Virus record (IMG/VR): IMGVR_UViG_3300044518_000037
Location: 1-64,000 of that record
Reading direction: 5' to 3' (one strand)
Source: a virus
Lineage: Duplodnaviria; Caudoviricetes
Length of the DNA: 64,000 bases
The translations under genes were made by a program, and so were the position numbers. The notes under the pieces were generated by a model. The model was not told the DNA's origin. It searched no databases and worked only from the letters and a program-made list of their open reading frames with translations. Positions 1,973-9,459 of the stretch are shown here, one piece after another; within the stretch, counting starts at the first letter, position 1; each line of letters starts with the position of its first letter.

Positions 1973-2362
1973 ATGTACCTCATGGTGACCGAGGAGTTCC
2001 GAGGTCGGAAGGACGGCAAGCCTGGCACGGTGACGCTTAGGCGGAGCCGCACCCGCACCAACGACATCGAGCAGATCACAAAGGACCTGGTCCAGATCAT
2101 GCGCGATGCCGACGACCGGTTCTCCGGCATGGAGGACTTCGGGGAAGCGCACGGCTTCTGGCACCCGGATCACAAGTGTCGGCTCCAGATCGGTGAAGAG
2201 CGCTCGGATGAGTGCAAGGAGCTGGAGCTGGAGTCGTGCGCTGAGTGGATTCGAAAGAGGCTCGGCGAACTCCGGTGTGGGGAGACGGAGGACTTCCACC
2301 TCGGCCGCCCTGGAACCGAGACCTCGTATCACGTGACCGTCCAGGAGACCGGCGACCGCTGA
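1973..2362 (+). CDS. Hypothetical protein
   Basis: RBS GGAGG, ATG at 1973. Confidence 0.75.
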   Translation: MYLMVTEEFRGRKDGKPGTVTLRRSRTRTNDIEQITKDLVQIMRDADDRFSGMEDFGEAHGFWHPDHKCRLQIGEERSDECKELELESCAEWIRKRLGELRCGETEDFHLGRPGTETSYHVTVQETGDR

Positions 2363-2450
2363 CGCGTGACGAGAGCGCGCGGGGACTGCACCACAACCCG
2401 CGCGCTGTCACCACCTGCCAGCCACCAATTCAGCTAGGAGGGGATTTCGC

Positions 2451-2843
2451 ATGAAGCGACGCGTGGGGCCGGGCGACAAGGTCTGGATTCGGATGCCGTA
2501 CTCCGAGGTCAACATGCACATGGGTGTCGCGGGGCACCGGCTGGAGGTCGAGGTCAAGGAGGGCGGCGCGCAGCTGTTGAAGGACGGCCGTCAGTTCTCT
2601 TCCCCGATTCTTCACAGCGAGGCGGGGATCTTCCAGGACGAGCGGGGCCTGTACCTGCCCGACCGGAAGCTGACCTGCGACGAGATTTTCGAGCTGAGCG
2701 AGTCGTGCGACGGGCTGTTCGTGATCACCGACCCGGCGCGGCACATGGGCAATACGCCCTCGCTGTCGGAGGTGCAGGAGCACGTGCGCGAGTGCGAGTT
2801 CTGCACGGAGGTCAACAACGACGTTCTGGGCTGGGTGGCCTGA
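2451..2843 (+). CDS. Hypothetical protein, SH3-like N-terminus and C-terminal CxxC
   Basis: RBS AGGAGG; VGPGDKVWIR; CEFC. Confidence 0.75.
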   Translation: MKRRVGPGDKVWIRMPYSEVNMHMGVAGHRLEVEVKEGGAQLLKDGRQFSSPILHSEAGIFQDERGLYLPDRKLTCDEIFELSESCDGLFVITDPARHMGNTPSLSEVQEHVRECEFCTEVNNDVLGWVA

Positions 2844-2845
2844 TC

Positions 2846-3154
2846 ATGGCGAACGGGACGTTCGACAAGCGCGACCCGGCGACGGAAGGGCACTTCATCG
2901 TGACCCCGATCGGCTCGGACGGGAAGGAGTACTGGGAATCCAGGATGTGCCCGGATTGGGTGGTCGAGGGCCGCGAGTACTTCGCGAAGTGGTGCGCGCA
3001 GGAGCAGTTGAAGTGCCGCTATGGCGAGGTGGAGATCATCACCTGCGTGGTGACCGAGTACGCGGACGCCACGTTCGAAAAGATCGTGAATACCGCGCTC
3101 TATACCGCCGCGTACTTCGAACGGTTCCCGATGGCCCGACCGGAGAGGTACTGA
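2846..3154 (+). CDS. Hypothetical protein
   Basis: ATG 2 nt after the upstream stop; coding-like codon bias. Confidence 0.7.
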   Translation: MANGTFDKRDPATEGHFIVTPIGSDGKEYWESRMCPDWVVEGREYFAKWCAQEQLKCRYGEVEIITCVVTEYADATFEKIVNTALYTAAYFERFPMARPERY

Positions 3155-3155
3155 C

Positions 3156-3575
3156 GTGGGCTGGGTCATGCACGAGTCGGGCGTCATGGACGACGACGGC
3201 CAGCACGGGGATGAGCAGCACGGTCCGGCCTGTTCGGTGAGGTACGTCAACCCGGATCTCCCGGGCGCGGTGGTCACGGTCTACGCCTACGCCCACGCGC
3301 CGGAGCGGCAGAACACGGTGCGCGAGGACGGCATGGAGTACGCCGAGTATGGGCCCGACCTGGATTCCCTCGGCGTGGAGTCGCTGATCGAGTACGCGAC
3401 CGGGTGGGACCTGAGCGACCCGGACAGTCAGCCGGAGTGGACGAAGCCGGTCTACGACGGGCTCGACACCTGGCCGCTCAACGGGGACGTGGACAAGGCG
3501 ACGACGGTGGCCCGCGTCTGGATTAGCTCGCTGGACCCGGAGCGGGACCTTCACTGGAACGGAGAGCAGTTCTGA
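3156..3575 (+). CDS. Hypothetical acidic protein
   Basis: Coupled to both neighbours; codon bias. Confidence 0.7.
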   Translation: MGWVMHESGVMDDDGQHGDEQHGPACSVRYVNPDLPGAVVTVYAYAHAPERQNTVREDGMEYAEYGPDLDSLGVESLIEYATGWDLSDPDSQPEWTKPVYDGLDTWPLNGDVDKATTVARVWISSLDPERDLHWNGEQF

Positions 3576-3976
3576 TGAGCAACGAGAAATGTGAGCCGGC
3601 CGAGGCGGACTGGTACGTCGAGCTGATCTACGGCAAGACCTTCTGCCCGGAGACCGAGGCCGGCGGGGTGTGCACCGACCGGTACGACTCGCACGATCGG
3701 CAGTACGGCACCGAGACCAGCTATAACCACGGCTACTTCAAGGGTGACCGGCGGAACGAGGTCGAGGTGGCTGCACTGCTGCCCGAGGGCTGGTACGAGA
3801 TCGAGCGCTCGATCAAGCGGTGCCCGGAGATCGGCGACGAGACCGAGTGCGTGCACTGCGACATGGGGATGGTCTTCACGAACGAGCACCCGCGCTGGCA
3901 GAACGCGGCGAGCGGGGGCGACTGCCCGATCAACGGTCTTGACGGGCACGAGCCGGTGGACGAGTTCAACGCGTAA
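3575..3976 (+). CDS. Hypothetical Cys/His-rich protein
   Basis: TGATG overlap; CxHC and further Cys/His residues. Confidence 0.75.
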   Translation: MSNEKCEPAEADWYVELIYGKTFCPETEAGGVCTDRYDSHDRQYGTETSYNHGYFKGDRRNEVEVAALLPEGWYEIERSIKRCPEIGDETECVHCDMGMVFTNEHPRWQNAASGGDCPINGLDGHEPVDEFNA

Positions 3977-3982
3977 CAGGAA

Positions 3983-4056
3983 GCCCGGCAAATTCGGAAC
4001 GCGACATGGGGACACCCATGCCTGCGGGCGGGTTCGAATCCCGCGCCGGGTGCGCA
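3983..4056 (+). ncRNA. tRNA-like element A (acceptor stem + T arm, no canonical D or anticodon arm)
   Basis: GCCCGGC(3983-89)/GCCGGGT(4045-51) 7-bp stem; T arm GCGGG-TTCGAAT-CCCGC (4028-44); internal hairpin CATGGG-GACA-CCCATG; 3' GCGCA. Confidence 0.7.
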
Positions 4057-4078
4057 GTAGTCGACAGAAAGGGGAAGT

Positions 4079-4540
4079 ATGTTCCCGCTGATTCAGGTAC
4101 GCCGGGTCAACTGGCGTGACTCGCGATACGAGTTCGGGGACGGCACCGCAACAGCGCTCGAAGCTGGTGAACTGGACGCGTACGACGTCGTGCTGGTGGA
4201 CCAGGACGGCGAGGAGCTGGCCAAGTCCGACTGGCCACAGGCCGACCTTCCCGGTCTGGCCAAGACCTACCCCAGCCCGTTCTTGATCCCGCGCAAGGCG
4301 GGACAGCTGCGCGATCTGGCGGCCGACATGTGGACCGGCCAGGCCGCTGAGGTCGGCAGTCGGTTCGTGCCGATCAAGGGCTGCAAGTACGAGGGCCAGG
4401 TCGTCACCGTGCAGGAGATCGAGCACGACGATCGCGGCACCGATGGCTCGTGGATGACGGGCCACGTCCTGGTGTCCCCGGAGAGCGGGAAGGTAGTGCG
4501 ACTCCGGCTCGACCAGCTTCGACCGGCGGATGGCGAGTAG
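4079..4540 (+). CDS. Hypothetical protein
   Basis: RBS AAGGGG; codon bias. Confidence 0.75.
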   Translation: MFPLIQVRRVNWRDSRYEFGDGTATALEAGELDAYDVVLVDQDGEELAKSDWPQADLPGLAKTYPSPFLIPRKAGQLRDLAADMWTGQAAEVGSRFVPIKGCKYEGQVVTVQEIEHDDRGTDGSWMTGHVLVSPESGKVVRLRLDQLRPADGE

Positions 4541-4584
4541 CTAAAGCGGTGCGAAAGCTTGCGCCAGAATTCAAGGAGGGGAAA

Positions 4585-5118
4585 ATGACGGAGATCATTC
4601 CGCCGAGGTGCTCGACGCTCTCGGGCGATCCGTGGGACCCGTGCGAGCGGGCCGCCACGCACATGCTGGTCTACAGCCAGTTGGAGAACGAGAAACGGCA
4701 GGAGTATGCCGAGGCGGTGTGCAAGCCGTGCGGTGAGGGCTACCTGCGCCGGCCGGCGCTCAAGGCGCGGCTCGTTCCGCTCGGACCCGAGACGTACGCG
4801 CAGCGGGAGATCGTCGGAGGCGTTCCGCTGCCGGACGGATCGAAGGTGGTTCTCGGATTCCACGAGGGATTCACTGACCCCTACGTGGTGGCCAGGATCG
4901 GCGGAGCGTTCACTGGCAACGGCAAGTACCTCGGGACGCATGAGCGCGCCCTGGCGCTTCTGGTCGAGGAGCTGGCACAGGTGGTGGGCCTGGTCATCCA
5001 GGCGCCCAAGGTCGCGGAGCCGAAGGGCAAGCCCTTCACCCCGCCGACCTACGCGGAGGTCCAGGAATTCGTGGACCTCGCGACCGGCGGCGGCAACTTC
5101 GTGGGTGAGGAGAACTGA
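4585..5118 (+). CDS. Hypothetical protein with Cys/His zinc-finger-like N-terminus
   Basis: RBS AAGGAGG, ATG at 4585; C..C..H..CKPC. Confidence 0.75.
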   Translation: MTEIIPPRCSTLSGDPWDPCERAATHMLVYSQLENEKRQEYAEAVCKPCGEGYLRRPALKARLVPLGPETYAQREIVGGVPLPDGSKVVLGFHEGFTDPYVVARIGGAFTGNGKYLGTHERALALLVEELAQVVGLVIQAPKVAEPKGKPFTPPTYAEVQEFVDLATGGGNFVGEEN

Positions 5119-5585
5119 TGGCCAGGTACATCGGATACCCGGAGCCGTCGGAGTGGCAGGGCCATCTGCTCAAGCGACTCACCAAACTCGACGCCCGTGA
5201 GGCTGAGTTCAAGTGCCAGCGGTGCGGCATCACCGGGAGCCTGAGTTCACTGCGCGGCCGGATCGTAGTCGACGCCGACTGCGTGGCGAACCCCACCGCG
5301 ATCAAGCTGTGGATCAGCGTGGCCGACTTCCCGCCGCCGGCCAACGACGAGTTCTGCCACACCGGTCCGCAGCGCGAGGAGGCGCGAGCGCGGGTGCTGG
5401 AGGCAGCTGGCCGGATTTGGTACCGGACGCTGGAGAAGCAGCACGCCATGCCGATCGAGGGATGGGTGGCGGTGGACTCGGCGCGGTCGATGGAGGTCGC
5501 GCAGTTCATGAACTTCGAGCAGCGTTACAGGGTGCTGCTGAACGGGGCCAGCGGGAAGGTCGCGATCGAGAAGTTCGACAACTGA
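5118..5585 (+). CDS. Hypothetical protein
   Basis: TGATG overlap; CQRC. Confidence 0.75.
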   Translation: MARYIGYPEPSEWQGHLLKRLTKLDAREAEFKCQRCGITGSLSSLRGRIVVDADCVANPTAIKLWISVADFPPPANDEFCHTGPQREEARARVLEAAGRIWYRTLEKQHAMPIEGWVAVDSARSMEVAQFMNFEQRYRVLLNGASGKVAIEKFDN

Positions 5586-5655
5586 CCGAGGCCGAAAAGG
5601 GCGCCCTGAGTGGGCGCCTTTCGCGTACGTGGGTGCGCCTGACGATGGCCGTCAG
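5582..5655 (+). ncRNA. Type II hammerhead ribozyme (predicted cleavage after C5622)
   Basis: GAA(5594-96)-A; 10-bp stem III; UUC triplet; 6-bp stem I; CUGACGA core (5639-45); one extra U; stem II GGCC/GGCC plus GTCAG/CTGAC. Confidence 0.8.
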
Positions 5656-5675
5656 TGAGTAGGGAGGGACGCAAC

Positions 5676-6284
5676 TTGACCTTGATCAACCCGTTTACCG
5701 AGGAACAATCCAAGCTGTTCATGGCAGTGCTCCTTGTGCTCGACTCCAGCGCGGAGCCGACCCGGCACGACGAGATCGTCAGGCGCACCGGCACCGGGGG
5801 CAAGCAGCGCCGCCTGGCCGTCTACGACGCCATGTGGGGGTGGCAGAAGCGAGGCGTCATCCAGCTCGCCGAACCGATCCCCGGCGATGCGTACGTGAAC
5901 TCGAACCCGCTCTGGCGGATCAGCCCGGTGGGTGAGATGCGCGCCGACGCCTACCGGCGTGAGCTGGCCGAGCGGGTCCGGGAGAACGAGGTGTGGTGGG
6001 ACACCCGGAGCACGTGGTCCCCGACGGAGGAGGTGAACCCCGAGTTCCGGGACAACCCGAAGCAGATCGCCTTCCACTACCACAGCACGGGGTGGTTCTC
6101 GACCTGGACGCCGGTTGAGCGACTGCTCACGGTGTACAGCGCGGGCGGCCAAGTGCTCGACCTCTATGGGTGGTCGCGCAAGGACAACCCGCTCCTCTAC
6201 GACGCGACGCAGGCGGCTGCTCTGTTTGGACCGCTGTCCGCACTCATCTACCAGAACCGGATCTACCCCAGCCAGGAGAACTGA
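5676..6284 (+). CDS. Hypothetical protein with winged-helix-like N-terminus
   Basis: RBS GGGAGG with TTG start; helix pattern DEIVRRTG..AVYDAMWGWQKRGVI. Confidence 0.7.
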   Translation: MTLINPFTEEQSKLFMAVLLVLDSSAEPTRHDEIVRRTGTGGKQRRLAVYDAMWGWQKRGVIQLAEPIPGDAYVNSNPLWRISPVGEMRADAYRRELAERVRENEVWWDTRSTWSPTEEVNPEFRDNPKQIAFHYHSTGWFSTWTPVERLLTVYSAGGQVLDLYGWSRKDNPLLYDATQAAALFGPLSALIYQNRIYPSQEN

Positions 6285-6285
6285 C

Positions 6286-6549
6286 GTGAAGGCGATGAAG
6301 AGTAGCGAGGCGGTTCAGCTCGCCGGCGAGTCCGGATTGATCTGGCTGGGCGGCCGGGCGACGTCCGGCCGGAAGCCGAAGAAGGTTTCGCGGTTGGTCA
6401 AGGTGGAGCTGTTGCCGCGCGGTGCCATCTCGTGGCGCGACGAGAACGGCGTCCTGGTTGACCAGACGCGTACAAGCTCGCCGGTCTTCGTGGAGAAGTA
6501 CGAGCCGGAGATTCCGCAGTCCAACACCAGTGTGAAGGAAGGGAACTGA
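6286..6549 (+). CDS. Hypothetical protein
   Basis: GTG directly after the upstream stop; RBS AGGAG. Confidence 0.65.
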   Translation: MKAMKSSEAVQLAGESGLIWLGGRATSGRKPKKVSRLVKVELLPRGAISWRDENGVLVDQTRTSSPVFVEKYEPEIPQSNTSVKEGN

Positions 6550-6992
6550 TGGACGACATGATGCTCGCGGTCGTGTGCAAGGTGACGTGGCGCCCGAGGC
6601 TTGGCAACGTCGAACTCGGCGCCCCCCAGGTCGAGGAGATGCAGCTCATGGTCGACCGGCACGCTTACGAGAACAACGACGACCCGTACACGAATACGTT
6701 CTACGACCTGTGGGCCGAGGCGACGATGACCATCGCCGGGCGACACGACACGAACCGGAACTTCTTCCAGATCATCCGGATCGAGCCGGTCTGCTCGTGC
6801 CTCGGACCGTGCCGATTCCCGGAGCGGGAGCGGTTCTGGATGAAGGCCGACGGCGTTGCCTTCTGGGAAGCCGGCCTATTCGACCGCGAGGAGGACCCCC
6901 AGGGCTTGCAGCCTCAGGCGTTCGCCTGCGGCACGCCGGGTGACATGGCACTCGTGCTCGCGGCCAAGCGCCGCCGCCACCACCACCAGTAG
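6549..6992 (+). CDS. Hypothetical protein
   Basis: TGATG overlap; RBS AAGGAAGGG. Confidence 0.75.
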   Translation: MDDMMLAVVCKVTWRPRLGNVELGAPQVEEMQLMVDRHAYENNDDPYTNTFYDLWAEATMTIAGRHDTNRNFFQIIRIEPVCSCLGPCRFPERERFWMKADGVAFWEAGLFDREEDPQGLQPQAFACGTPGDMALVLAAKRRRHHHQ

Positions 6993-7004
6993 GGGGGAAG
7001 TGCT

Positions 7005-7700
7005 GTGCAGCGCCGGCAGATCGAGTGGGAGGACGCGTGGATGCACGCGGACCTCCACTACTGGGACGAGACGGACGTTCGCGAGGGCGGCAACACCGCC
7101 GAGGTACGCGACCTCGCGCTGAGGCTCCTCAACCTGTACGAGTCGGAGATCTACGACCAGGACGAGGAGAAGCTCTTCAAGGCGATCGAGTACGCGGGTG
7201 AACGTTGGCCGGAGGGCTTCACCCCCGGGCAACTCGACACCCTGCACAACGTGCCGGTGTCGGACGATCCCGAACTGTGGCTGGGCTCCGAGGCGTGGAC
7301 GGAAGCGTATGAGACCGCCGAAGCCCACGACTGGCGGCCGTTCGAAGCCCTCCTGGACGGGGGATGCCAGGCGGCCATGGTGGCCAACCTGTACACCCAC
7401 TCGAAGATCGACAGGGACGCCGCCAGGCTGGGAGCCGCGCTGTGGGCACTTGGTGAGGTCGAGAACAACTGGACGATCTCCAGGCTGACCAAGGTGGTTG
7501 AGTCCTACCAAGGTCAGACTGGCACCGACGTAGACGAGCTGGTGGACCAGCACATCGAGGAGAACTGGCCGGGCTTCCCCGTCGAATTCGTCAGCAACAA
7601 GGAGCACTTCTTCGACACGCACGTCCTCGGGGAGAACGAGGTGTGCATCGAAGGGCCCGTGCCCGGAGCCTTCTACTACTTCGACAAGAACCGCTGGTAG
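7005..7700 (+). CDS. Highly acidic protein, possible ArdA-like DNA-mimic antirestriction protein
   Basis: Very D/E-rich; C-terminal ESYQG..DELVD..E..P..F..FF..YYF pattern resembles the ArdA C-terminal domain. Confidence 0.45.
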   Translation: MQRRQIEWEDAWMHADLHYWDETDVREGGNTAEVRDLALRLLNLYESEIYDQDEEKLFKAIEYAGERWPEGFTPGQLDTLHNVPVSDDPELWLGSEAWTEAYETAEAHDWRPFEALLDGGCQAAMVANLYTHSKIDRDAARLGAALWALGEVENNWTISRLTKVVESYQGQTGTDVDELVDQHIEENWPGFPVEFVSNKEHFFDTHVLGENEVCIEGPVPGAFYYFDKNRW

Positions 7701-7708
7701 GAGGGGCA

Positions 7709-7756
7709 GCCCCGTCAGGCGGAGGCAGCCGGTTCGAATCCGGCGCGGGGCGCGCA
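7709..7756 (+). ncRNA. tRNA-like element B (minimal acceptor + T-arm minihelix)
   Basis: GCCCCGT(7709-15)/GCGGGGC(7745-51); 12-nt linker; GCCGG-TTCGAAT-CCGGC (7728-44); 3' GCGCA. Confidence 0.7.
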
Positions 7757-7774
7757 GGGACTGCACCACAACAC

Positions 7775-7806
7775 GGCTCGCCCAAATCCGGGCGGGCCTT
7801 TCGTAT
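7775..7806 (+). terminator. GC hairpin with TTTCGT tail
   Basis: GGCTCGCCC-AAATCC-GGGCGGGCC-TTTCGT. Confidence 0.55.
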
Positions 7807-7820
7807 TTCAGGAGGGGAAC

Positions 7821-8564
7821 GTGGATTCCACAACACCGCCGGAGCCCGGACTGATCGAGCCCGAAGCCGTCGACCAGCCGGTGTACCACGCCGAGTTCTT
7901 CGACCCCGAGGGGCTCTCCATCGGCAGCATCAGGACCGAGAACAAGTTGCTGCTGCGCCACCTCGAAGGTACCTGGGTTCCCGCCGACGAGAGCACGATC
8001 TCCAGGCAGATCACCTCGTCGAACACGGACCACAAGCACCAGCTAGGGTTCGAGCACTTCACCCTGGTCTCGAAGCCGGACCGGCGCTCCCGGCGTGTCG
8101 GCTTCGTAGAGCACAACACCTCTGGCGGCGACCGCACGATCGGCACCGTCTTCTACGACACCGTCGACCAGAAGTACTGGGGCACCGTGTTCGAGACGGA
8201 GGGAACGCCGCCGAGGGAAAACCCGCAGCAGGTGCTGGCGGACATCGTGCGCCTGTACCTGCTCGGCCCGCTGGGTGAGAGTCACCCGACGGTCACAGCT
8301 GCCTACGGAGTGGCCCGATCGCGGCTGCACGACCGGGACAGCGCCATCGACCGCGTACCCGAGGGCAAGAACCCGAACCAGCAGAAGCGAGTGATCAAGA
8401 CCGAGGCCGCGTACGAAACGGCGCTGAGCATGCTCGCCTCGGTACTCGCCGCTGCCGGGTACGACGTGCTCGGCTATGGCGACATGCCCAGCCCGGAGCG
8501 CGCGGAGGAGCACCTGAGGCGCTGGATCGAGGCCCTGGAGCAGAAGGCGCCCCGCCGGGGCTGA
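7821..8564 (+). CDS. Hypothetical protein
   Basis: RBS AGGAGG, GTG start. Confidence 0.75.
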   Translation: MDSTTPPEPGLIEPEAVDQPVYHAEFFDPEGLSIGSIRTENKLLLRHLEGTWVPADESTISRQITSSNTDHKHQLGFEHFTLVSKPDRRSRRVGFVEHNTSGGDRTIGTVFYDTVDQKYWGTVFETEGTPPRENPQQVLADIVRLYLLGPLGESHPTVTAAYGVARSRLHDRDSAIDRVPEGKNPNQQKRVIKTEAAYETALSMLASVLAAAGYDVLGYGDMPSPERAEEHLRRWIEALEQKAPRRG

Positions 8565-8686
8565 TCAAAAAATGTCCGGGCGGGGCACCCGGACGGTCGG
8601 CTGTGGGGCGAATTTCTGGGTGGTTCACTGAGCGGGCGCCCTCCACTTCGGGGCGCCCGCTCCTGTCCTATGGGAGGATCCGCGTC

Positions 8687-8971
8687 TTGGCAACGAGGAC
8701 AAGTAGCCCGCTGAAGCTCAACCAGCTGCGGGTGGGGAGTCGAGTTCAGTTCGTCGACTCCATGGAAGAGGGCGGAATGCGCCCGCTGCCGACGCCGACA
8801 ATCCGGCGGGGGATCGTGGATGCGATCACCGGCGGGATGGTCTATGTCCAGGTAAAAGCAAGCGGCCCTGCGCGGAGCAATTTGACTGGTGGATTCTTGC
8901 ACGGGTTCACCGACGTACAGGTCAACGAAGGAATTCTTCACCGCGTCCCGGGTCGCCGGAACCGAATTTGA
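8687..8971 (+). CDS. Hypothetical SH3-like protein
   Basis: RBS GGGAGG with TTG; LRVGSRVQF..GIVDAI..VYV. Confidence 0.6.
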   Translation: MATRTSSPLKLNQLRVGSRVQFVDSMEEGGMRPLPTPTIRRGIVDAITGGMVYVQVKASGPARSNLTGGFLHGFTDVQVNEGILHRVPGRRNRI

Positions 8972-8979
8972 GGAGAGAC

Positions 8980-9459
8980 ATGACTGAGAACGCACCCAAG
9001 ACCGTCCTGCAACAGGTGAAGGACGCCATCGCCGAGCGTGACGCCGGACATGCGCTGTGCGAGGACGAGGACGGCTACGTGATCCCCTCCGAGCAGGACG
9101 AGTTCGACAAGGTCACTGCGGAATTTGAGTCCGAGATCAGCCAACTCATCGACGGCCTGGTGGACGAGATCGAGAACCCGCGTGTCTTCACGGTGATCGT
9201 AAAAGCCGATGCGGACGACACCCCGAACCACCTGTTCTGCGTCACTGTGGCCGCCAACACCACCGACAAGGCGCAGGAGGCCGCGATTGACAGCGCCAGC
9301 AAGTCCTTCATGGAGCGCCAGGGGTGGGACGAGGAGAAGATCACGGCGATGGAGTGGGGCGCCAACCTGCGGTTCACCGCCGAGGGCATCTTCGTGGGTC
9401 ACCCGCTGCGCTCGCCTGAGACCACCACCGAAATCGATCTGACCGATGAGGAGAACTGA
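8980..9459 (+). CDS. Hypothetical acidic protein
   Basis: RBS AGGAG, ATG at 8980. Confidence 0.75.
   Translation: MTENAPKTVLQQVKDAIAERDAGHALCEDEDGYVIPSEQDEFDKVTAEFESEISQLIDGLVDEIENPRVFTVIVKADADDTPNHLFCVTVAANTTDKAQEAAIDSASKSFMERQGWDEEKITAMEWGANLRFTAEGIFVGHPLRSPETTTEIDLTDEEN

Follow-up and report, generated by a model that had tools for sequence, protein, structure and literature searches.

A spacer between two small genes of an uncultured virus holds a sequence with the length, acceptor stem and T arm of a tRNA, in which a different hairpin takes the place of the anticodon arm. What could such an element do in the message that contains it? We addressed this question in the window, a stretch of 64,000 nucleotides that makes up the first 64 kb of a 75.8-kb virus record with a GC content of 66%. 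The reading that we favor, and to which we assign a probability of roughly 0.6, is that this sequence (element A) serves in cis as a signal for host RNase P and host tRNA 3' processing and would thereby segment a polycistronic early mRNA of an actinobacterial phage.

Fold and genomic setting of element A

The features on which the argument depends all lie on the plus strand of the window:

3974–3976 (+): TAA stop of the upstream 133-aa orphan gene (3575–3976), 6 nt 5' of element A
3983–3989 (+): 5' strand of the acceptor stem, GCCCGGC, pairing with GCCGGGT
3990–3999 (+): single-stranded linker AAATTCGGAA, 10 nt, unpaired in the RNAfold fold
4000–4026 (+): central hairpin, consisting of a 6-bp CATGGG/CCCATG stem, a GACA tetraloop and four outer pairs
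4028–4044 (+): T arm, GCGGG-TTCGAAT-CCCGC, with a loop identical to that of element B
4045–4051 (+): 3' strand of the acceptor stem, GCCGGGT, forming seven pairs with GCCCGGC
4052–4056 (+): discriminator G73, C74 and GCA trailer, with the predicted 3' processing site after G4052
4064–4081 (+): purine-rich ribosome-binding site (GAAAGGGGAAG) and ATG of the 153-aa gene (4079–4540)
5582–5657 (+): hammerhead-type ribozyme candidate, between elements A and B in the next-but-one spacer of the same gene run
7709–7752 (+): element B, with the architecture of element A, a 12-nt linker and a start 8 nt after a TAG stop
7775–7798 (+): intrinsic-terminator-like hairpin and T run 3' of element B, the only one on the plus strand in 2000–9000

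In the minimum free energy (MFE) structure predicted by RNAfold, positions 3983–4051 (+) form a 7-bp acceptor stem stacked on a perfect T arm, and 38 nt separate the 5' strand of the acceptor from the T arm. A first-pass annotation of the locus had described this stack together with a hairpin closed by a 4-nt loop, CATGGG-GACA-CCCATG, and both are borne out by the sequence and the MFE structure. The hairpin lies at 4005–4020 and is extended by a CGCG/TGCG helix that pairs 4000–4003 with 4023–4026; it occupies the place of the anticodon arm, and the 7-nt loop of that arm is absent. The MFE is -37.5 kcal/mol (z = -2.0), with the three-part fold accounting for 42% of the ensemble. No relative carrying this central hairpin was found in pattern scans. 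The outermost acceptor pair of element A, G1·U72, is a wobble, at a position occupied by G-C in 44 of 45 distinct members of the family described below.

A D stem is absent, as had been stated in the annotation, but the linker nonetheless holds a D-loop word with G18-G19. Judged by its sequence, AAATTCGGAA is a relic of a D loop that keeps these two guanines, the bases by which a D loop is locked onto the T loop. The word ATTCGG within it forms the D loop of real phage tRNAs (as AATTCGGCA in a tRNA-Asn) and also appears in three elements of the related phage G002.

The combination of stems and loop is rare by chance. A strict scan of the whole 75.8-kb genome, requiring all five T-stem pairs, a TTYRANN loop, all seven acceptor pairs and a linker of at most 45 nt, gave two matches, elements A and B. 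The mean over 200 dinucleotide shuffles was 0.095 matches, and two matches were reached in only one of them.

Element A is not a decoding tRNA, in agreement with the annotation. ARAGORN, which had been expected to reject it, found no tRNA in the window, and no Rfam family matched element A at its gathering score; the best sub-threshold match was to tRNA-Sec (17.8 bits, E = 0.71, against a gathering score of 47). The cloverleaf with a D stem and a 7-nt anticodon loop is lacking, and the canonical top half of a tRNA (7-bp acceptor, 5-bp T stem, TTCRANY loop, R73 and C74) is present in full. The phage has no true tRNA gene, so element A is not part of a decoding set.

The trailer had also been singled out, as GCGCA in place of NCCA. 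The letters are right, but the apparent oddity does not survive comparison with genuine tRNA genes. Among 473 such genes, taken from the high-GC viral loci among L001–L262 and unselected on their trailers, C74 is encoded in 468 and CCA in only 110. Because C74 without CCA is the norm in these genes, the G-CGCA of element A corresponds to discriminator G73 followed by C74, and GCGCA was rejected as a special motif; it is the usual signature of a tRNA gene. The near-universal C74 points to a role for this base in precursor processing in actinobacterial phages. The full trailer of element A is GCGCAGTAGTCGAC, and CGCAGTA recurs 3' of several elements. At the other end of the element, the predicted RNase P cut falls at A3982/G3983, which places an A at position -1.

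The helicase of the phage is nearest to those of BRock-type Streptomyces phages (~41% identity), and a run of small genes extends along the plus strand from 620 to about 27,000. Element A occupies a 102-nt spacer between genes for 133 and 153 aa, and it begins 6 nt after the TAA stop, the distance that the annotation had given. None of the eight proteins neighboring element A has a PHROGs family. Its flanking proteins had no relative in 50,697 phage records by tblastn, and a megablast search of the same records with positions 3000–5000 gave no match. Since no relatives of the locus were found, there is no orthologous spacer with which to compare element A.

Between the genes in 2000–9000, no promoter-like site was detected. 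Taken with the lone terminator after element B, this would place element A inside a multi-gene transcript, and the region is probably transcribed as one unit. Element A was itself rejected as an intrinsic terminator, no plus-strand terminator being present at its position. A conserved word, also noted at 2377, lies directly 3' of element B and is followed by the terminator-like hairpin (7752–7798, plus strand); element B may mark the 3' end of a transcription unit. The phage encodes no CCA-adding enzyme, RtcB or Ro protein, and a Pfam scan of 52 of its ORFs found no RNA-processing domain, so host enzymes are implied in the processing proposed below.

A family of minihelices in actinobacterial phages

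Element B provided the entry to a wider family. It scored 60.9 bits with R1, a covariance model built on an alignment of six B-type copies, and its loop and trailer are the same as those of element A. Near-identical copies of element B occur in five other viral contigs; pattern scans of IMG/VR gave B-type copies in six contigs, which have the same acceptor and covarying T stems. With model R1 and pattern scans, at least 15 minihelix copies were found in G002, a complete 109-kb phage, and five in a second relative, G001, all of them on the gene strand. Linker lengths among the matches listed in a generic scan were bimodal, at 6–21 nt in minihelices and 40–44 nt in true tRNAs. R1 matches in BRock, GiJojo and pSt2308 were rejected as minihelices; they are partial matches to annotated true tRNAs.

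Members are present in cultured phages of several hosts. Gordonia phage VanLee has at least seven copies in 4 kb, each 5–31 nt past an annotated CDS end, and Mycobacterium phage Phlei and Streptomyces phage Dagobah have one copy each; in all three phages the copies follow coding sequences, in gaps that carry no annotation. The family also extends, again unannotated, to Mycobacterium phages SWU2, Journey13 and Konstantine and to Streptomyces phages Endor1 and phiScoe3/45.

The dominant sub-type, GCCCNGA-NGGTCGYAG-T arm, was found in more than 120 actinobacterial species, from genera that include Streptomyces, Nonomuraea, Nocardia, Corynebacterium and Microbacterium. Its exact pattern matched 16 of 401 sampled Streptomyces species, and a reversed control pattern gave zero matches in the Streptomyces sample. 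This patchy distribution in Streptomyces fits a spread by mobile elements. In some genomes, near-identical copies form arrays that flank NUDIX and WhiB genes. On the chromosome of Nonomuraea aurantiaca (L320:4109–5751, plus strand), five near-identical 41-nt minihelices, one of which differs by a single base, are interleaved within 1.6 kb with a NUDIX gene, and WhiB and DUF4097 genes come after them; L328 and L295 are similar. The L320 locus may belong to a prophage or an integrative conjugative element and not to a phage operon.

Rfam holds no family for these minihelix elements, and our search of the literature found no description of such elements in phages. A bulk catalogue of viral structured RNAs mentions tRNA-like candidates and does not describe this class (PMC10690425).

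Element A shares with the family the 12-bp stack, the TTCGAnT loop, the GG-bearing linker, R73-C74 and a start a few nucleotides after a stop codon. It lies outside the core criteria, having a linker of 38 nt (6–21 nt in the core) and no significant model score; R1 gave only 16.7 bits, a partial match that results from the 38-nt linker. Element A is best read as an extended variant, with a hairpin inserted at the place of the anticodon arm, and not as a core member. No orthologue was found in the phage records or the IMG/VR pattern scans, so its membership rests on architecture and not on a demonstrable conservation of its own. Scans with A-type patterns returned only ordinary tRNAs from unrelated contigs that share the acceptor or the D-loop word, and the tRNA-length sequences with the acceptor of element A are not orthologues. 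The annotation had raised the prospect that homologues might fold as canonical tRNAs; the family members are all anticodon-less.

Three further sequences, L079:2025–2091 (-), L216:3362–3433 (+) and L258:8747–8821 (+), are tRNA-sized and anticodon-less, with perfect acceptor and T arms and structured linkers of 36–44 nt, and A-like extended forms therefore recur. ARAGORN made no tRNA call on L079, which adjoins three true tRNA genes.

Pairing, flanking bases and placement after stop codons

We examined selection on the RNA in an alignment of 46 elements. In this alignment, which was fitted to the model and drawn partly from searches whose patterns fix GCCC...GGGC, 94% of cells pair and compensatory (double) changes occur at 9 of the 12 pairs. 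Most of these changes are held by the three inner T-stem pairs, which the patterns leave unconstrained. The covariation score was 0.425, compared with 0.089 in shuffles, and was reached by none of 500; the signal was lost when partner columns were slid against each other.

The length of the stack is constrained as well. Acceptor and T stems together span 12 bp in 41 of the 46 elements, divided as 7+5 (21 elements) or 6+6 (20 elements), and the junction base covaries. Among 32 elements that had not been selected on their flanks, A stands at -1 in 24, R73 in 31 and C74 in 29. Linkers carry GG, typically within a TGGT-like word, and stem sequences differ freely among copies in one phage. A 12-bp stack has been proposed as the measuring device for RNase P, and R73 and C74 contribute two of the three pairs in the contact between RCCA and RNase P RNA (PMC11143913). 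Stacking of the T loop at the elbow, the 12-bp ruler and R73-C74 constitute the known recognition set of bacterial RNase P.

Placement relative to genes is similarly regular. In reading frames supported by GC3, the gap from stop codon to element is 6–8 nt in 20 of 33 cases (6 nt for element A, 8 nt for element B), and from the end of an element to the start codon that follows, across a ribosome-binding site, the median is 36 nt. Nearly every small gene of G002 has an element 3' of it, and all family copies are co-oriented with the flanking genes. The identity of the stops (15 TAG, 12 TGA and 6 TAA) is not clearly unlike the background at the same loci. With a ribosome on the stop codon, a gap of 6–8 nt would set the first pair of the element immediately beyond the mRNA tunnel, and cleavage at +1 would leave a 3' tail sufficient for ordinary termination.

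A few members have the stop codon within the acceptor strand. At L144:8038–8083 and 6639–6680 (+), the upstream TGA coincides with acceptor positions 5–7 (GCCCTGA and GCGCTGA). A cut at +1 in such members would generate an upstream message without a stop codon, an outcome that is hard to square with processing as a solely constructive function.

Some spacers of the same kind hold self-cleaving ribozymes. The element array of G002 opens with three pistol ribozymes in successive spacers (L144:2346–2414, 2618–2684 and 2909–2977, plus strand; ~91.8–92.5 kb), and a fourth lies at L198:4240–4305 (-); the pistols match Rfam RF02679 with 62–70 bits. A Hammerhead_II ribozyme adjoins two elements in L168. 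In the window, the candidate at 5582–5657 is a weak match to Rfam Hammerhead_II (14.5 bits) in which the CUGAnGA and GAAA cores are present.

A predicted role in mRNA processing and its alternatives

From these features we infer the following cuts, enzymes and benefit to the phage. The D-loop relic of element A could close the tRNA elbow, and host RNase P would read this elbow and the 12-bp stack and cut just 5' of G3983, so that the upstream cistron would end 6 nt past its stop. At the other border, the host enzymes that mature tRNA 3' ends (RNase Z or exonucleases, followed by the CCA-adding enzyme) would act after G4052/C4053 and free the downstream cistron with a leader of roughly 25 nt. 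The outcome would be a separation of cistrons, as by the self-cleaving ribozymes in sibling spacers, with a small CCA-tailed RNA of about 70 nt as a by-product. A signal for RNase P and RNase Z was among the options offered by the first-pass annotation, and it fits all of the comparative evidence: the stack, the T loop, G18-G19, R73-C74, the sense orientation, the post-stop placement and the ribozymes.

The released RNA could in addition serve as a decoy, an option also proposed in the annotation. As the main function, we consider it unlikely that the CCA-tailed minihelix acts in trans as a tRNA mimic, soaking up a host factor that reads the acceptor/T half, such as a defense toxin that modifies acceptor ends, the CCA-adding enzyme or EF-Tu; such an activity would be compatible with processing. 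The elbow, the 12-bp stack and R73-C74 are what these factors read, and the many copies per genome would give a high dosage. M. smegmatis is able to add CA to a tRNA-like module (PMC4201824), and an acceptor start of GCCC/GGGC is preferred, although our searches selected for it. However, stems that vary freely between copies in one phage imply that no specific identity is kept, neither G3·U70 nor another known minihelix identity set is present, and no partner gene was found in the phage. Moreover, the placement after stops and before ribosome-binding sites, together with the substitution by ribozymes, is explained by cutting and not by a decoy.

Could the element instead work without being cut, as mRNA structure at the ribosome entry channel that blocks 3' exonucleases or tunes termination and re-initiation? 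The folds are GC-rich and stable, and the 6–8 nt gap (20 of 33) would put the first pair just outside the tunnel. A plain hairpin would suffice for this purpose, however, and a roadblock has no need of the T-loop sequence, the G18-G19 relic, R73-C74 or a 12-bp ruler that persists through the shift from 7+5 to 6+6. RNase P is also unlikely to spare a perfect tRNA top half, and we regard this explanation as rather improbable.

For element A alone, decay from a former set of phage tRNAs has to be weighed. Element A is tRNA-sized and keeps the D-loop word, its T arm and 3' acceptor strand agree at all but one base with those of a real phage tRNA in L266, and purifying selection on it is not demonstrable given that no orthologue was detected. 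A functionless pseudogene is nevertheless a poor account of its structure, and we think it improbable: decay should strike all arms, yet the 12 pairs of the top half and the T loop are perfect, and the anticodon arm has been cleanly exchanged for a perfect 6-bp hairpin. The phage has zero tRNA genes and carries, in element B, a shorter sequence with an identical loop and trailer; in its spacing, position -1, R73 and C74, element A conforms to the family.

Least probable is a role at the DNA level, as boundary sequences for cassette recombination or shuffling or as remnants of tRNA-gene attachment sites. In its favor, integrating elements often carry tRNA 3' ends, and in bacterial clusters small genes are bordered by near-identical copies, such as the five in a 1.6-kb stretch of Nonomuraea aurantiaca. 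Against it, the compensatory changes maintain pairing in the RNA, all copies point the same way as their flanking genes, and both acceptor strands are present, needlessly for an attachment core. An attachment-site tRNA fragment was rejected for element A on the presence of both acceptor strands, with two copies in the phage and many in its relatives.

If element A is indeed a cis-acting processing signal, host tRNA-maturation enzymes would cut phage operon mRNAs into single-gene messages, a bacterial-virus counterpart of mitochondrial tRNA punctuation and of the t-elements of plants. The biological role of self-cleaving ribozymes in phage operons is a long-standing open question, and they would acquire a concrete job, the separation of cistrons. 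More tentatively, and as a possibility that we hold to be doubtful, this could be a general form of mRNA punctuation in actinobacterial phages and mobile elements, in which minimal tRNA mimics 6–8 nt after stop codons leave each gene boundary to be processed by host RNase P and the enzymes that mature tRNA 3' ends. The mimics might then be interchangeable with pistol and hammerhead ribozymes, the gap might leave a tail that permits normal termination and not ribosome rescue, and the released CCA-tailed minihelices, at dozens per genome, would perhaps serve as acceptor-end decoys. The occurrence of the family in cultured Gordonia, Mycobacterium and Streptomyces phages makes these predictions directly testable. 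Annotation pipelines miss the family, which has neither an ARAGORN call nor an Rfam family. In synthetic operons built for actinomycetes, the elements could also be of use as compact insulators that the host itself powers.

Relation to known tRNA-like RNAs

The closest natural parallel is found in plant mitochondria, where t-elements are non-decoding tRNA-like folds in mRNA precursors whose borders coincide with mRNA ends; RNase P and RNase Z are proposed to recognize them in cis, and C/A residues that the gene does not encode are added to the RNA once it is released (Forner et al., 2007, PMC1920247). Element A has the same GGTTCRANYCC T-arm motif in a non-decoding fold, which lies in sense orientation between coding regions of a predicted longer transcript. 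In contrast to our elements, t-elements are organellar, few per genome and without a fixed distance to stop codons. They are also not reduced to a 12-bp minihelix with a 9–12 nt linker, and they have no association with self-cleaving ribozymes.

The architecture matches that of synthetic RNase P substrates. Bacterial RNase P accurately cleaves hairpins reduced to an acceptor stem, a T stem and a T loop (McClain, Guerrier-Takada and Altman, 1987, reviewed in PMC11143913). These substrates have the same minimal design, with cutting at the canonical site, a 12-bp ruler and R73-C74 directed to the P15 loop. They are laboratory constructs, whereas the elements described here are natural, embedded in mRNA and equipped with an extra GG-bearing linker.

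Host RNase P also matures regulatory RNAs of phages: the C4 antisense RNA of P1/P7 and the M3 RNA of phi80 are listed as its substrates in PMC11143913. In both cases a phage transcript is matured via a tRNA-like acceptor end, a cleavage that is predicted for element A. C4 and M3 differ in being single regulatory RNAs with a trans-acting sequence, not repeated, sequence-free punctuation between cistrons. No match to Rfam C4 was obtained in the search with element A.

The tRNA-like domain of tmRNA carries the alanine identity pair G3·U70, and tmRNA has a tag reading frame and pseudoknots between its acceptor strands. Like element A, the domain joins an acceptor stem to a T arm, lacks an anticodon and has only a reduced D region. 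tmRNA was rejected as an identity for element A, in which pair 3-70 is C-G instead of G3·U70 and the acceptor 5' strand is only 38 nt away from the T arm; ARAGORN found no tmRNA.

To our knowledge, the new observations here are the C74 signature that the elements share with true tRNA genes, the 7+5/6+6 ruler, the 6–8 nt stop gap, the D-loop relic of element A and the list of cultured phages.

Bacterial Y RNAs resemble element A in part. The YrlA RNA of M. smegmatis has a tRNA-like module, formed by a T arm and a 7-bp acceptor-like stem, that is cut by RNase P and gains CA to give CCA in vivo (Chen et al., 2014, PMC4201824), and it is likewise an actinobacterial RNA other than a tRNA. A D arm, a Ro-binding helix and a position beside rsr set it apart from element A, and the phage is without a Ro gene. 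The Y-RNA-like identity that the annotation had entertained has no support: no TROVE gene was found in the phage or its two relatives (G000–G002), the element gave no Rfam YrlA match, and neither a D arm nor a Ro-binding helix is present.

The nearest named relatives of the phage by helicase, GiJojo (L150, 4500–10500) and BRock (L151, 98000–105000), carry long arrays of real tRNAs without minihelices. These arrays adjoin an annotated Ro-like gene in GiJojo and a gene for an RNA-binding protein in BRock, and a Y-RNA partner may be present among them. Finally, viral contigs of lower GC content (L028, L067, L073, L088, L018, L040 and L080) contain recurrent sequences with a perfect GGTTCGAATCC T arm. 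ARAGORN made no call on these sequences, which are not minihelices and may represent further non-canonical tRNA-like RNAs.
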